In this document: positions 1 to 4,270 of the stretch, piece after piece
How positions within the stretch are numbered: position 1 is the first letter of the stretch
Layout of the letters: each line of letters opens with the position of its first letter
IMG/VR virus record: IMGVR_UViG_2706794685_000016
Direction: 5' to 3' (one strand)
Origin: a virus
Taxonomy: Duplodnaviria > Heunggongvirae > Uroviricota > Caudoviricetes
DNA: 4,270 nt
Translations under genes and position numbers: made by a program
The notes under the pieces: generated by a model
Told to the model about the DNA's origin: nothing
Database searches by the model: none
The model's input: only the letters and a program-made list of their open reading frames with translations

Positions 1-282
1 ATGTCGTCGGTAATGTGTGATGGTCTGTTAGTGGGTAATGCCGAAATTATTCCGTTCAGTCCGCGCAGGTATCTTTATCACGCCTATCTGGCATATATGA
101 GGGCACACGGATTCGGTAAACCTGTAACACTGACGCGCTTCGGTAAAGATATGCCGGGGGCAATGGCGGAATATGGCAGGGAGTATATGAAACGGAAAAC
201 GAAGCACGGTTTGCGTTCAAATGTGACCCTGACAGAGGATTCAGAAGACTGGATGCCATCATGTGCAATAGGTCACAAATGA
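1..282 (+). CDS. Putative 3' end of a replication initiator gene (P4 alpha-like primase/helicase origin-binding region); possibly a complete 93-aa ORF instead
   Basis: Seen: frame open from nt 1 (ATG) to TGA at 280-282. Inference: it lies immediately upstream of an iteron array whose core TGTTCACC is the type I iteron bound by the C-terminal domain of phage P4 alpha. Function is assigned by position, not by a recognised motif in the protein. Confidence 0.4.
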   Translation: MSSVMCDGLLVGNAEIIPFSPRRYLYHAYLAYMRAHGFGKPVTLTRFGKDMPGAMAEYGREYMKRKTKHGLRSNVTLTEDSEDWMPSCAIGHK

Positions 283-309
283 CGATGGAAAAAATTAAAC
301 TTATGGAAT

Positions 310-534
310 AACTGTTCACCCTGCAATAAATGTCTTTTATATCAGTATATTATAGGGTGAACAGTTATTTATGAACTGTTCACCAAACTATTCACTGTTC
401 ACCTTTTTGATTCTTTATTGAGCTTTAAGGGTGAACAGTGGTGAACAGTTGGTGAATAGTTTTTGTGAAACTGTTAACCCATTAACATCATGAATAAAAA
501 GGGAAAATTGCAAAAGGTGAACAGGTGAAGGGTT
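310..534. repeat. Iteron array in an AT-rich intergenic region (origin-of-replication-like; ori/crr-type)
   Basis: Seen: forward copies of GGTGAACAGT(T) at 356-366, 430-439, 440-450, 451-461 (1 mismatch), 516-525 (1 mismatch), 524-534 (degenerate); reverse copies AACTGTTCACC at 310-320, 374-384, 394-403 and 469-479 (1 mismatch). Copies 356-366 and 374-384 form a perfect 11-bp inverted repeat with a 7-nt spacer; 430-461 is three head-to-tail copies. Flanked by A/T-rich sequence (481-560). Established: TGTTCACC is the P4 ori/crr type I iteron. Confidence 0.7.
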
Positions 535-575
535 AAAATGCAAAAATTTTATTTTATTGCTGTGAGGTAAAGCCT
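500..575 (+). promoter_or_regulatory. Probable promoter / DNA-unwinding region upstream of the 576 ORF
   Basis: Seen: A/T-rich stretch with a TTGCAA (508-513) and TAAAAT (533-538) pair at 19-bp spacing (non-ideal), and GAGG (564-567) about 8 nt before the GTG at 576. Overlaps the last iterons, so initiator binding could regulate it. Weak match to sigma-70 consensus. Confidence 0.25.
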
Positions 576-821
576 GTGACAACGAAGCACGCCAAAAAAC
601 CACAATCTCACGCCCTTGATTTGACAGAACACTGGCTGAGGGTGGCGATAAAAATCATCGACCGCAACGCCGGGGAAGGATACGCGAAAGCACATCCCGA
701 ACTGATAAGCGCATTCATGACCACGACGGCGGCAAACTTTGCCACGCTGACAGAACGGGAGATTGCCGAAGCGGAACAGGTGACAACCATCAACGTTAAA
801 ACCGGAGAGCAGACAGCATGA
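576..821 (+). CDS. Hypothetical small protein (81 aa), GTG start
   Basis: Seen: ORF with GTG start preceded by GAGG; stop TGA (819-821) overlaps the ATG (818-820) of the next gene in an ATGA arrangement, indicating translational coupling. No recognisable motif. Confidence 0.5.
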   Translation: MTTKHAKKPQSHALDLTEHWLRVAIKIIDRNAGEGYAKAHPELISAFMTTTAANFATLTEREIAEAEQVTTINVKTGEQTA

Positions 822-1201
822 CAGCACAGATAGCGGCTTACGGGCGGCTGGTGGCTGACCCGCAGTTAAAGACCACCAGCAAGGGTACGCAAATGACGAT
901 GGCGAGTATGGCGGTTCCCCTGCCGTGCAGCCAGGCAGATGACGGAACGGCGACGATATGGTTATCCGTCCTGGCGTTTGGCAGACAGGCTGACGCACTG
1001 GCAAAGCACCAGAAAGGCGAGCTGGTGAGCGTGGCGGGTAACATGCAGGTAAGCCAGTGGACAGGCCAGAACGGAGAAACGCGGCAGGGCTGGCAGGTTA
1101 TCGCAGACAGTGTAATCAGTGCCAGAACGGCGCGACCGGGCGGTAAAAAAGGCCAACAGGGGCAGGCCACTGATGCACTGAACAGGGCCAAACAACAGGC
1201 G
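818..1201 (+). CDS. SSB-like single-stranded DNA-binding protein (OB fold), 3' end lost in assembly gap
   Basis: Seen: ATG preceded by GGAG (804-807). The translation aligns by eye with E. coli SSB: IAAYGRLVADPQL versus VILVGNLGQDPEV, and TIWLSVLAFGRQADALAKHQKGELVSVAGNMQVSQWTGQNGETRQ versus [46 protein letters not shown], followed by a Gly/Gln-rich linker (RPGGKKGQQGQ). The reading frame beyond 1201 runs through Ns and is not interpretable. Confidence 0.7.
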
Positions 1202-1465
1202 NNNNNNNNNNNNNNNNNNNNNNNNNNNNNNNNNNNNNNNNNNNNNNNNNNNNNNNNNNNNNNNNNNNNNNNNNNNNNNNNNNNNNNNNNNNNNNNNNNN
1301 NNNNNNNNNNNNNNNNNNNNNNNNNNNNNNNNNNNNNNNNNNNNNNNNNNNNNNNNNNNNNNNNNNNNNNNNNNNNNNNNNNNNNNNNNNNNNNNNNNNN
1401 NNNNNNNNNNNNNNNNNNNNNNNNNNNNNNNNNNNNNNNNNNNNNNNNNNNNNNNNNNNNNNNNN
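1202..1465. other. Assembly gap (264 N)
   Basis: Seen: run of n characters; content and true length unknown. Confidence 1.
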
Positions 1466-1479
1466 ATTTACAAAAAACA

Positions 1480-1522
1480 GGCGCAAAAAAAAGCGCCCCG
1501 ATGGTGCCACCGGAGGCGCTTT
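1480..1522. terminator. Overlapping alternative hairpins (possible terminator for the gene ending in gap 1)
   Basis: Seen: GGCGC(1480-1484)-A8-GCGCC(1493-1497); alternatively AAAGCGCC(1490-1497)-N17-GGCGCTTT(1515-1522). On the minus strand the first hairpin reads GGCGC-T8-GCGCC followed by TGTTTTTTG. No strong U-tract on the + strand, so terminator function is uncertain. Confidence 0.3.
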
Positions 1523-1613
1523 GTCAGCGACAAAGGATACTGCCACTACCGAAATGATGAGTCTTAATTGTGCTGGCTTGGCAATAATTAGTCAATTCTT
1601 TTGCTGGTATGAC

Positions 1614-1643
1614 AAAAATCAGAAAACACATAATCTGATTTTT
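1614..1643. promoter_or_regulatory. Perfect 10-bp inverted repeat (operator candidate) upstream of the morphogenesis genes
   Basis: Seen: AAAAATCAGA (1614-1623), 10-nt spacer AAACACATAA, TCTGATTTTT (1634-1643). It lies about 75-100 bp upstream of the 1717 start and contains a CATAAT hexamer (1629-1634) in the spacer. Confidence 0.4.
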
Positions 1644-1716
1644 AGATAGAAAATGATTTATTTACCAGTTTTATCGATCAATAATGATGCCCGTTAATCA
1701 TAACGGAGGCAGACTT

Positions 1717-1911
1717 ATGCCAGAGAACAACAGCAGAAAACCGGATAAAAGTGCAACAGTGCACATAGACGCCGGAACTATGGAGAAGCTCGAACGCTAT
1801 CAGCAGTTCATTAAAAGTCATCACCCTGGAATGCCAGTACCCACGAAAGGGCAGATTGCGAGAAGCGCGGTTGAATACTGGTACAGGGCAACGTTAGGAG
1901 CCTGGCTATGA
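1717..1911 (+). CDS. Hypothetical small protein (64 aa from the ATG at 1717)
   Basis: Seen: strong SD GGAGG (1705-1709) 7 nt upstream of the ATG at 1717; the in-frame ATGs at 1684 and 1687 lack an SD. Stop TGA (1909-1911) overlaps the protease ATG (1908-1910) in an ATGA arrangement. No cysteines, so not an Ogr/Delta-type zinc finger. Confidence 0.55.
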   Translation: MPENNSRKPDKSATVHIDAGTMEKLERYQQFIKSHHPGMPVPTKGQIARSAVEYWYRATLGAWL

Positions 1912-3053
1912 AAACATGGTTTTCCATTAAGGCTATGGCTGATGTTGTACATGTACGCATTTATGACGAGATCGGCGGGTACGGTGTAAAAGCATCGGCA
2001 CTTACTGACGAGATCAACGCGTGCGGTAATGTGCCTGAAATCCATCTTCGCATCCATTCACCTGGTGGCGACATCTTTGAAGGGCTGGCTATCTATAACG
2101 CCCTGAAAAATCATCCGGCAAAGAAAATTGTACACATTGAAGGCATGGCGGCTTCTATGGCCTCGTTTATTGCCATGTGTGGCGATCACATCGTTATGCC
2201 TGAAAACGCGATGATGATGATACATGCCCCCCGTGGTGTTACTGCCGGAGTGTCGGGCGACGTTCGCCGCTTTGCTGACCTGATGGACAAGCTGGGCGAC
2301 ACGATGGCGGAAACCTACGCCGGAAGAACGGGCAGGAGCAAACAGGAAATCACCGCCATGATGGAGGCGGAAACCTGGATGGATGGCAATGAGTGTAAGG
2401 CTAATGGCTTCGCAGATGAGGTTATACCCGCGATTACAGCAATGGCCAGAATTGAATCAAAACGAATCGGAGATTTTTCGAATATGCCGGAAAATATTAA
2501 AAGCATGATCAGCCAGAAAACTGGCAGCGGAGAACAGGAACGACTCAACGGGATACGTGAATTGTTTGGCACGTTCAATGGAAGATATAACGACCTGGCT
2601 ATAAGTTGTCTTGCTGATTCAGGCTGTAGCGTTGAGGATGCACGCGAACGCCTTTTACTCACTATGGGTAAAGAATCGACACCGACAAACAAAACCACCC
2701 CCGCAAATCTTTACTACGCGTACACGGATAACGGCAACATAACCGGCGATGCAATGCGTCAGGGGCTTAATGCGCGTCTGGGACATGAACAGGCAGAACG
2801 CGGCAACCCTTACGCCATGATGAGCCTTTTCGATATGGCACAGGCATCATTAACCCATCGCGGCATAAGCACAGGCAGCTACAGCACACGCTCGCAGATA
2901 GTAAACGCGGCATTCACCCACAGCAGCAGCGATTTTACTTATATCCTTGCTGGTGGTGCTGAAAAATCCGTGAACACAGCGGCGAAACGTTCCGCCAGTG
3001 GACGAAAAAAGGTTCATTGTCAAACTTCCATGAGGCACGTCGTGTTGGCCTGA
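1908..3053 (+). CDS. ClpP-family prohead (head maturation) serine protease with about 190-aa C-terminal scaffold/linker-like extension
   Basis: Seen: AGGAG (1896-1900) 7 nt before the ATG. The N-terminal half carries ClpP signature motifs in the right order: IHSPGGD (cf. ClpP INSPGG), GMAASMASF with the putative catalytic Ser codon at 2154-2156 (cf. GQAASMGAF), MIHAP with the putative His codon at 2223-2225 (cf. MIHQP), and WMDGNE...FADEVI (cf. the Asp-containing C-terminal region). Established: ClpP-like proteases of this kind process HK97-type proheads. Confidence 0.85.
   Translation: MKTWFSIKAMADVVHVRIYDEIGGYGVKASALTDEINACGNVPEIHLRIHSPGGDIFEGLAIYNALKNHPAKKIVHIEGMAASMASFIAMCGDHIVMPENAMMMIHAPRGVTAGVSGDVRRFADLMDKLGDTMAETYAGRTGRSKQEITAMMEAETWMDGNECKANGFADEVIPAITAMARIESKRIGDFSNMPENIKSMISQKTGSGEQERLNGIRELFGTFNGRYNDLAISCLADSGCSVEDARERLLLTMGKESTPTNKTTPANLYYAYTDNGNITGDAMRQGLNARLGHEQAERGNPYAMMSLFDMAQASLTHRGISTGSYSTRSQIVNAAFTHSSSDFTYILAGGAEKSVNTAAKRSASGRKKVHCQTSMRHVVLA
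3005..3011 (+). other. A_AAA_AAG heptamer in phase with the protease ORF (candidate -1 frameshift site or homopolymer indel hotspot)
   Basis: Seen: frame-0 codons are CGA(3003-3005) AAA(3006-3008) AAG(3009-3011), so the heptamer A AAA AAG is in the phase required for tandem slippage. The -1 frame is open from 2963 and continues for 216 codons into the capsid ORF; frame 0 stops at 3051-3053. Established: A_AAA_AAG is the E. coli dnaX slippery sequence. Confidence 0.35.
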
Positions 3054-3659
3054 ATGGCTTCTCTACATTAAACAAAGTGCCGGAAGGCGCGGAATATAAA
3101 TACATCACCACCAGTGACCGTGGCGAACCAATCGCGCTGGCAACTTACGGAAATATTTTCAGCATTACCCGACAGGCGATTATTAACGATGACCTGAATC
3201 AGTTAACAGTTATCCCACAGGCAATGGGGCGAGCAGCCGCCAGAACGGTGGGTAATCTGGTTCATCTGGTGCTGACAGGAAACACAAAGCTTTCTGACGG
3301 TATACCGCTGTTCAGCAAAAAACACGGAAATGATATTGATAACGGAGTCAGCACTACAGGGCTTGGCATTGCACGCCGTGCAATGCGCACACAGAGGGAT
3401 GAAAACGGTGAGGTGCTGAATATTGTGCCAAAATTCCTTCTTGTTCCTGCGGCTCTGGAAGACAGAGCGTTGCAAATGGTTAACTCAACCACGCCTTTCG
3501 GTGCCGATACAAACAGTGGTTCATATAACCCGTACCACAAACAACTGGATATTATTGTCGATCCCCGCCTTGATGAAGTCAGTGATAAGCAATGGTACAT
3601 GCTTTCAGCACAGGGAACGGACACAATTGAGGTGGCTTATCTTGACGGTAATGACGAGC
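3017..3659 (+). CDS. Major capsid protein domain (HK97-fold-like), 3' end lost in assembly gap; no credible independent start
   Basis: Seen: long ORF in the -1 frame relative to the protease. Its only candidate start is TTG at 3017 with a poor SD; the first in-frame ATG is about 70 codons in. It contains PKFLLVPAALEDRAL, resembling the N-P-x-D-W-A-A-L type motif of HK97-family capsid proteins. Position directly after a prohead protease supports the call. The frame after 3659 runs through Ns. Confidence 0.6.
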
Positions 3660-3933
3660 NNNNNNNNNNNNNNNNNNNNNNNNNNNNNNNNNNNNNNNNN
3701 NNNNNNNNNNNNNNNNNNNNNNNNNNNNNNNNNNNNNNNNNNNNNNNNNNNNNNNNNNNNNNNNNNNNNNNNNNNNNNNNNNNNNNNNNNNNNNNNNNNN
3801 NNNNNNNNNNNNNNNNNNNNNNNNNNNNNNNNNNNNNNNNNNNNNNNNNNNNNNNNNNNNNNNNNNNNNNNNNNNNNNNNNNNNNNNNNNNNNNNNNNNN
3901 NNNNNNNNNNNNNNNNNNNNNNNNNNNNNNNNN
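3660..3933. other. Assembly gap (274 N)
   Basis: Seen: run of n characters; content and true length unknown. Confidence 1.
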
Positions 3934-3988
3934 AGATTCTTTACAAAAAATCTGAGCTTGTTTTCTTAACCAGCGCGATGGGGGCACA

Positions 3989-4270
3989 ATGACAGAAGCC
4001 GAAATACTGGGATTAATCCGCCGCGTCGCCGGAATCAGCCAGCAGGTTGACGAACAGGCCATGCAACCGGACAGCGTGACCGCTGAAAATTATGCGCGTG
4101 TGGTGGATGAGGTAATGCGCCGTGACGGTATTGAGCTTAACGGCGTGGATATGCGCAACATACGAACCAGAGTTCTTGAGTTGCTGGCATACCGTCGCCG
4201 TTCTCAACAACGGAGGGAGAGCGCGAAAAATACTTACCAGTGGAGGAAGCCGGAGCACTTACGGCGGTAA
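3989..4270 (+). CDS. Hypothetical protein (93 aa) downstream of the capsid gene; possibly a head-completion or connector-type protein by position only
   Basis: Seen: ATG at 3989 preceded by a G-rich stretch GGGG (3981-3984); complete ORF ending with TAA at 4268-4270. No recognised motif; the functional guess rests on gene order in HK97-like head modules. Confidence 0.45.
   Translation: MTEAEILGLIRRVAGISQQVDEQAMQPDSVTAENYARVVDEVMRRDGIELNGVDMRNIRTRVLELLAYRRRSQQRRESAKNTYQWRKPEHLRR

Follow-up and report, generated by a model that had tools for sequence, protein, structure and literature searches.

Phage-inducible chromosomal islands (PICIs) of Gram-negative bacteria are defined by an integrase gene (int), alpA, a pri-rep gene with an iteron origin at its 3' end and, frequently, genes for capsid morphogenesis, and their packaging strategy is either cos- or TerS-based (PMC6092414; PMC10085698). 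A capsid gene is the commonest late gene of these islands, present in 21 of 29 reference elements (PMC10111431), and counts as a core component in SatelliteFinder, whose PICI model tolerates elements with four of the five core components as variants (PMC10085698). One such island, EcCICFT073, has two functional cos sites and a capsid and decoration gene pair (PMC6092414), and capsid-forming PICIs (cf-PICIs) encode capsid, protease, portal, connectors, HNH, TerS, and TerL in about 15 kb (Alqurainy et al.). Here, we analyzed a 4,270-nucleotide stretch of viral DNA (IMG/VR record IMGVR_UViG_2706794685_000016), referred to in its full length as the window. We are highly confident that the window is the right-hand 4.3 kb of a decayed classical Gram-negative PICI of ~9.9 kb, situated between cspD and clpS on a chromosome of the Shigella sonnei type. 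That level of confidence applies to the identification as a decayed classical PICI, and the proposed remodeling of helper capsids stands outside it.

The exact 93-amino-acid (aa) protein encoded at the right end of the window (p93) appears in 3832 blocks of the assembly collection, from which nine loci, eight of them in complete chromosomes, were retrieved for comparison. Across all its unmasked parts, the window shares 99-100% identity with these loci, one of which (L008; CP019689) belongs to Shigella sonnei 75/02. In the intact loci L006, L009, and L010, the genes are ordered cspD, int, AlpA, small open reading frames (ORFs), DUF4222, a 596-aa primase, p81, a single-stranded DNA-binding protein gene (SSB), p64, a 626-aa protease-capsid fusion, p93, and clpS; with the sites included, the island itself reads int, alpA, small genes, Pri-Rep, ori, p81, SSB, cos1, p64, protease-major capsid protein (MCP), cos2, and p93. 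Its ends are marked by imperfect direct repeats (~830 and ~10750 in L006). A tyrosine integrase lies at one end, outside the window (L006 911-2149; PF13356 and PF00589), followed by an AlpA-type regulator (L006 2559-2768; PF05930) that is 45% identical to P4 Vis and by the 596-aa primase-helicase with its D5_N/DUF5906/Pox_D5 domains. The genes of the full element (L006 ~830-10750) include no portal, terminase, connector, HNH, tail, or lysis gene, and an island of ~9.9 kb without tail, lysis, or other structural phage genes agrees with the size and content expected of PICIs (about 10-20 kb). In Shigella, E. coli, Kluyvera, Yersinia, Rahnella, and other genera, this ~10-kb arrangement of genes is found again in intact form and with defined borders on the chromosome.

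An initial annotation, made from the letters of the window alone, had proposed a satellite and recommended that the locus be extended both ways; the extension bears the proposal out, with int and alpA to the left, chromosomal clpS to the right, direct repeats at the ends, and no phage packaging, tail, or lysis genes in between. Every feature that it had listed within the 4.3 kb is also present at about the position it gave. The classical PICI definition fits the window on each tested feature except TerS/Rpp, and the definitions of cf-PICIs and P4-like satellites do not fit. The type of element is already known, and the pairing of a capsid gene with a satellite replicon is textbook knowledge for Gram-negative PICIs. 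The view that such an arrangement is unusual could not be sustained, given that the major capsid gene stands beside pri-rep and ori in the same 21 reference islands (PMC10111431).

By homology, the replicon is P4-like. The ORF at the left edge of the window matches Pfam Pox_D5 (E 2.6e-11) and the solved structure of the P4 alpha origin-binding domain (PDB 1KA8; E 1.5e-22), and the intact 596-aa initiator of L006 shares 50% identity with residues 320-771 of P4 alpha, a segment that spans the helicase and origin-binding domain; the first 144 aa of the initiator show no relationship to the P4 alpha primase domain. Just 3' of the initiator gene, in a position like that of P4 crr, the octamer TGTTCACC occurs within 313-523 as seven exact and two one-mismatch copies, distributed over both strands and in two sets that flank an A+T-rich spacer (404-428). 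When up to one mismatch was allowed, 12 copies were counted in the whole window against 3.5 +/- 1.9 expected, a number reached in 0 of 200 shuffles, and the iteron stretch is 68% A+T compared with 51% for the window as a whole. In the annotated P4 genome the octamer occurs 11 times, always inside 'ori type 1 repeat' features in crr and ori, and the layout of the iterons matches that of the E. coli PICI origins of PMC6092414. The P4-type iteron origin that the initial annotation had placed beside a putative initiator 3' end is therefore upheld by the octamer and the initiator alike, as is its SSB-like gene, for which matches to PF00436 (E 3.1e-16) and phrog_44 (E 6.9e-35) were obtained. SSB is 140 aa long in the relatives, its last ~13 codons being hidden by an N mask in the window, and has a dN/dS of 0.04; that of p81, a conserved satellite protein encoded between the origin and SSB, is 0.2-0.34 between satellites. 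As a separate observation on the origin, the 10-bp unit ACTGTTCACC is single in the window (310/311) and tandemly duplicated in all nine related loci, a copy-number polymorphism of the iterons, and a genome_contigs scan gave no exact match to the window-specific iteron junction.

The head module encodes a protease and a capsid protein, as the initial annotation had stated. A hidden Markov model search of 1908-3659, which it had suggested, assigned the region to prohead protease and capsid families in Pfam and PHROGs: 1908-3053 matches CLP_protease (PF00574; E 3.7e-33) and the head maturation protease family phrog_133 (E 1e-152), and 3017-3659 matches Phage_capsid_4 (PF25209; E 6.9e-39) as well as Mu-like gpT. 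The two parts form one 626-aa gene in intact relatives, and its 3' end is N-masked in the window. A sequence search of the PDB with the fusion protein returned ClpP structures only, with the capsid domain unmatched, and the HK97 fold that had been proposed for this domain is therefore assigned through its Pfam family. The small gene p64 precedes the fusion. Its mechanically called ORF begins at 1684 (75 aa), a Shine-Dalgarno sequence favors a start at 1717 (64 aa), and an ATGA overlap couples its translation to that of the fusion gene. In each of the eight satellite-context loci that were checked (L003, six genome_contigs loci, and L006, where a 64-aa gene is called), a p64 homolog immediately precedes the fusion, and none was present in the checked loci with a prophage context.

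Comparison of the fusion gene with its homologs points to a lineage specific to satellites. In a sample of 48 full-length homologs, taken from one genome per species, the six that are 57-62% identical to the query are all found in a satellite context and preceded by a p64 homolog in place of a portal gene. Homologs of 51% identity or less nearly all belong to a terS-terL-portal-fusion-decoration operon, L053 being without a portal or terminase match. In a neighbor-joining tree, nine satellite fusions form one clade apart from 15 prophage fusions, and this clade is ~51% identical to any phage version in the collection. The gene shows a dN/dS of 0.13 between the Shigella and O157 copies (0.14-0.15 for the primase), and the ClpP-type motifs around Ser83 (GxAASMAS) and His106 (MIHxP) are conserved. 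The linker between protease and capsid measures 146-150 aa in every satellite versus 161-179 aa in every prophage. Because the gene is under purifying selection, has kept its catalytic motifs, and forms a satellite clade, it is likely to have been maintained for a function in satellites, and the shortened linker would be compatible with altered assembly of the shell. p64, with a dN/dS of 0.11 between the Shigella and O157 copies, is similarly constrained; a homolog search yielded only six close E. coli proteins. Between L006 (7862-9739) and O157:H7 (L003 12442-14328), the protease part of the fusion gene is 99% identical and the capsid part 86%, which suggests that recombination may have occurred within the gene between the Shigella and O157 satellite copies.

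The N-masked stretches of the window (1202-1465 and 3660-3933) both coincide with helper-type cos sites of the relatives, along with the 3' ends of the SSB and capsid genes. In the relatives, the cos1 stretch contains the SSB 3' end, a terminator, a diverged cosQ, cosN (ACGGGGCGG...), and a cosB-like region ending in TTTACAAAAAA, an end that is visible in the window at 1467-1477. The cos2 stretch contains the capsid gene 3' end, a terminator, cosQ (GGGTCCT), cosN, and a helper-type cosB that also ends in TTTACAAAAAA (window 3941-3951). In intact loci the two are 79% identical copies of a ~230-bp element, each situated after a terminator, and both align with the lambda cosQ/cosN end junction (cosN, ACGGGGCGG...CGCGG). 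In addition, cos1 aligns with the cos of the helper prophage, and the cos region upstream of the DUF1441 TerS gene in an O157:H7 lambdoid prophage (L003 3100-3300) matches cos2 almost exactly through cosB. Given these matches to the lambda junction and the O157 prophage cos, the island would appear to carry the packaging signal of its helper twice, bracketing the head module. Similarity to Rpp, Nu1, or DUF1441 was not detected in any ORF of the element.

The two halves of the window have different relatives. Its replication half was matched in 1772 of 5426 complete E. coli genomes (best identity, 96%); the matching islands are of the EcCICFT073 type and possess a lambda E-like capsid gene along with a decoration gene and a Nu1-like gene. 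The head half was matched in 209 of the 5426, with up to 89% identity, always as a gene annotated 'ClpP-like prohead protease/major capsid protein fusion' and located in int-alpA-primase islands of ~10 kb. The phage proteins closest to the fusion (49-51% identity) come from Shiga toxin (Stx)-converting lambdoids and mEp460-like phages, and the helper family is predicted to comprise lambdoids that combine a DUF1441 TerS with a fused head gene. In O157:H7 (L003), the island interrupts the terL of a lambdoid prophage that itself has a head gene of this fused kind, and in Kluyvera genomosp. 1 and Rahnella victoriana the satellite lies inside the helper's own protease-MCP gene, at ~codon 98-112, and bears a ~54%-identical paralog of the gene that it interrupts. 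These O157:H7, Kluyvera, and Rahnella relatives are helper-embedded PICIs of the kind described in PMC10111431.

The copy in the window is dead or dying, with a split initiator, an IS1 between int and alpA, and a frameshifted capsid gene. An insertion sequence (IS) of the IS3 family, with IS600-like ends, splits the primase gene in L004, L005, L007, L008, L011, and L012; in L007 it occupies ~4704-5962 and the window starts at 5966, and across the lineage the IS ends 1-3 bp before base 1 of the window. IS1 lies between int and alpA in the same lineage (L007 424-1190). Relative to intact L006, L009, and L010, the fusion gene has lost 13 bp between 2971 and 2972 and is frameshifted, for which reason it is read in the window as two overlapping ORFs, 1908-3053 and 3017 onward; in L012 the gene is split into products of 381 and 252 aa. 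Since the deletion is common to several complete genomes, it represents a genuine mutation, and a sequencing error can be discounted. The pattern of IS insertions is typical of IS-driven decay in Shigella.

Other identities of the element have to be weighed against a classical PICI. The initial annotation favored a capsid-forming satellite, in current terms a cf-PICI that makes complete capsids and a terminase of its own and borrows only tails. Like the cf-PICI EcCIEDL933, the island combines an int/alpA/pri-rep backbone with its own head maturation protease and major capsid protein. However, the components that define cf-PICIs are missing from the full element (L006 ~830-10750), which has no portal, head-tail connector, HNH, TerS, or TerL gene and, in the extended locus, no tail or lysis genes; its helper-type cos sites imply dependence on the helper terminase, and its 9.9 kb compares with 15.4 kb for EcCIEDL933. 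We consider a cf-PICI very improbable, and for the intact relatives this reading is refuted, barring unrecognizable portal or terminase analogues among p81, p64, and p93. Visible decay of the window copy through IS insertions and a frameshift, together with the phage origin of its head gene, might alternatively mark a defective or very small prophage, or a remnant of a phage-satellite hybrid, in which the replication and head genes are leftovers. Such a remnant deserves hardly any weight, as the ~10-kb order recurs intact with its borders in several genera (with the head module in the 209 E. coli genomes noted above) and the head gene, which is under purifying selection, falls in a satellite-specific clade ~51% identical to phages. 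The small phage or hybrid that the initial annotation had kept in reserve is excluded by gene content and by this conserved architecture. Equally remote is a P4-like satellite that exploits a P2-type helper through Sid, Psu, and Delta. The island shares with P4 its iteron octamer just 3' of the initiator gene, the alpha-like helicase and origin-binding domain, the type of integrase, and the Vis/AlpA homolog, but tblastn of P4 proteins against the element matched only int (23% identity), alpha, and Vis (45%) and recovered no homolog of Sid, Psu, Delta, Epsilon, or cI. Furthermore, the N-terminal 144 aa of Pri-Rep differ from the P4 alpha primase domain, the cos sites are of the lambda type and not the P2 type, and the island has a capsid gene, which P4 does not.

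Several points nevertheless weigh against our reading of the island as a PICI that uses helper cos sites and a satellite-adapted capsid gene. The TerS/Rpp component was not found, which leaves the island with four of the five SatelliteFinder core components, and support for this particular island is computational only. The function of the cos sites was deduced from sequence, and in the window both are hidden by the mask. With 264 and 274 nucleotides, the N runs differ in length from the homologous stretches (256 and 319), so that either the mask does not preserve length or the source has indels at the cos stretches. The tree that separates the satellite fusions is a midpoint-rooted neighbor-joining tree without bootstrap support. 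Finally, deletion of the capsid gene of EcCICFT073 did not relieve interference with lambda, and the DNA of that island was found in phage-sized heads (PMC6092414). EcCICFT073 is the one tested relative with a capsid gene, which is of the lambda E type and not a fusion.

Drawing on these comparisons, a working model of the intact island can be proposed. After induction of a lambdoid helper, the tyrosine integrase and the AlpA/Vis-type regulator would control excision and expression, as published work on the family suggests. The P4-alpha-type initiator would bind the TGTTCACC iterons downstream of its own gene and replicate the island with the aid of SSB, functions proposed by homology to P4 and EcCICFT073. 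Concatemers with two lambda-like cos sites would then be expected to be cut by the helper terminase (a DUF1441-type TerS with a gpA-type TerL) and packaged into helper-derived particles; for this step the sites themselves were seen in the sequence and the mechanism is extrapolated from them. The head module between the cos sites would supply p64 and the fusion, a diverged paralog of the single head-shell gene of the helper.

What the head module contributes to the particle is a matter of competing possibilities. The fusion may co-assemble with the helper capsid protein on the helper portal, or replace it, giving satellite-adapted and probably smaller shells in the manner of SaPIbov5 Ccm; by analogy this is plausible, though it falls somewhat short of probable. 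Because of the EcCICFT073 deletion result, the capsid-remodeling step is only a guess. Going further, PICIs with p64 and the fusion could be 'shell-forming' intermediates between classical PICIs and cf-PICIs, with a self-processing shell of their own and the portal, terminase, and tails of the helper. This extension seems unlikely; if it were true, the shortened scaffold linker would set a smaller T number suited to ~10 kb. Alternatively, and on balance rather doubtfully, the element may be the same PICI with a capsid gene that has no part in particle building and serves as a spare copy for an interrupted late gene of the helper or as an interference or decoy protein, or that is simply dispensable. 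A spare copy would suit the relatives whose insertion sites are late genes of the helper, its protease-MCP gene among them, a 'backup copy' was in fact proposed in PMC10111431, and PICI capsid genes are reported there not to be required for helper-assisted transfer; the unrelieved interference in EcCICFT073 (PMC6092414) points the same way. Against this, chromosomal copies of the island (cspD-clpS and tqsA) also keep the gene under strong purifying selection, and an old clade only ~51% identical to the helper genes would make a poor spare part. In addition, the catalytic motifs, the clade-specific shorter linker, and a dedicated partner gene are all conserved.

The coordinates of all features are collected in the table below. 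In the leader of the head module, a hairpin (GGCGC-A8-GCGCC) lies at 1481-1498, and a palindrome with perfect 9-bp arms, AAAATCAGA-N10-TCTGATTTT, lies at 1615-1642, ~75 nucleotides upstream of the p64 start. Satellites of E. coli and Shigella retain the palindrome block, which might act as an operator for the head module. The 255-nucleotide leader folds better than its shuffles (z -2.5), and a promoter scan gave fewer sites than shuffles give. The AlphaFold2 (AF2) model of p64 is of low confidence (pLDDT 69.5), with an extended and perhaps beta-stranded N-terminus followed by two helices; from its topology alone, a resemblance to the ribbon-helix-helix fold might be guessed, and Foldseek against the PDB returned nothing below E = 4. 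As a candidate relic of Rpp, TerS, or a portal, p64 showed no similarity in BLASTP or Pfam searches at E values up to 10. The same searches and limit gave no similarity of p93 to TerS, Rpp, or a portal. Relative to cos, p93 occupies the position that terS has in the helper; its AF2 model is helical and of low confidence (pLDDT 68), and the EcCICFT073-type island L001 likewise ends in this gene, at 92% nucleotide identity. Helper portal, TerL, TerS, and tape-measure queries (tblastn) found nothing within the six genome_contigs satellite loci except one TerS-like match in Buttiauxella. There (L020 ~12185), a DUF1441-type TerS homolog 36% identical to that of the helper lies downstream of the fusion, at the position of p93, and could be a TerS or Rpp analogue for its helper family. 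When the intact element was searched against Rfam, the only matches were two below threshold, to plant miRNA precursor families and both in the origin (L006 6323-6436); we read these as artefacts of inverted iteron arrays.

Features of the window and of two related loci. Coordinates are those of the window unless a locus is named; a dot marks features without strand.
Feature	Coordinates	Strand	Basis or remark
Pri-Rep initiator 3' end (P4-alpha-type winged-helix origin-binding domain; stump)	1..282	+	Pox_D5, PDB 1KA8
Replication origin	283..575	.	TGTTCACC iterons, 68% A+T
TGTTCACC iterons, forward	313-320, 377-384, 396-403, 472-479 (1 mismatch)	+	
TGTTCACC iterons, reverse	356-363, 430-437, 440-447, 451-458 (1 mismatch), 516-523	-	
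p81, 81-aa conserved satellite protein	576..821	+	phrog_1231 E 4.7e-49
SSB gene	818..1201	+	PF00436 E 3.1e-16; phrog_44 E 6.9e-35
cos1, mostly N-masked	1202..1477	.	homologous stretch L006 7164-7430
Leader upstream of head module	1478..1716	+	hairpin and palindrome
p64	1717..1911	+	phrog_4934 E 1.3e-46
ClpP-like prohead protease/scaffold linker/major capsid protein fusion gene, pseudogene	1908..3659	+	CLP_protease, Phage_capsid_4, phrog_133
cos2, mostly N-masked	3660..3988	.	homologous stretch L006 9627-10000
p93, last island gene	3989..4270	+	phrog_1561 E 2.9e-53
Interrupted helper gene/satellite insertion	L018 3236-3571 and 14500-16146		with L085, from Kluyvera genomosp. 1 and Rahnella victoriana
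Interrupted helper gene/satellite insertion	L085 2660-2986 and 14124-15194		with L018, as above

As a decayed copy of a common and already described kind of satellite, the window itself is of little importance. Its remaining value concerns the role of PICI-borne capsid genes, for which intact relatives (S. sonnei locus L006, of the CP032523 type, and E. coli S19-651, L002) offer a reasonable system in which to test helper-capsid remodeling. The satellite-specific p64 and fusion module is the only mildly new material, a modest addition consisting of an old sub-lineage under purifying selection with a systematically altered scaffold linker.

Among described systems, EcCICFT073, one of the classical Gram-negative PICIs (Fillol-Salom et al. 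2018, 2019), shares with the island the int-alpA-...-pri-rep order, an origin directly 3' of pri-rep whose two sets of iterons flank an A+T-rich spacer, two cos sites with a lambda-like cosN, a helper-derived capsid gene after the origin, and a last gene of the p93 type; the replication-module DNA of the EcCICFT073-type island L001 is 96% identical. The island differs in having p64 and a protease/scaffold/MCP fusion where EcCICFT073 has lambda E-like capsid and D-like decoration genes, in lacking an Rpp (Nu1-like) gene, in retaining a helper-type cosB at cos2, and in its putative helpers, which have a DUF1441 TerS and a fused head gene. With the helper-embedded PICIs (Tommasini, Mageeney and Williams 2023, PMC10111431), the O157:H7, Kluyvera, and Rahnella relatives share a location in helper late genes and a head-gene paralog, as in 11capE, whereas the lineage of the window is chromosomal (cspD-clpS) and not in a prophage. 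A further parallel is SaPIbov5, whose Ccm is a capsid-protein homolog that redirects the capsid assembly of a cos phage to small capsids. Both are cos-packaged satellites with the cos of the helper and a diverged homolog of its major capsid protein, but the homolog in the island is a complete protease-scaffold-capsid polyprotein, ~51% identical to that of the helper compared with 23% for Ccm. The shorter linker, purifying selection, and kept catalytic motifs are indirect hints that the island fusion may redirect assembly to small capsids as Ccm does.

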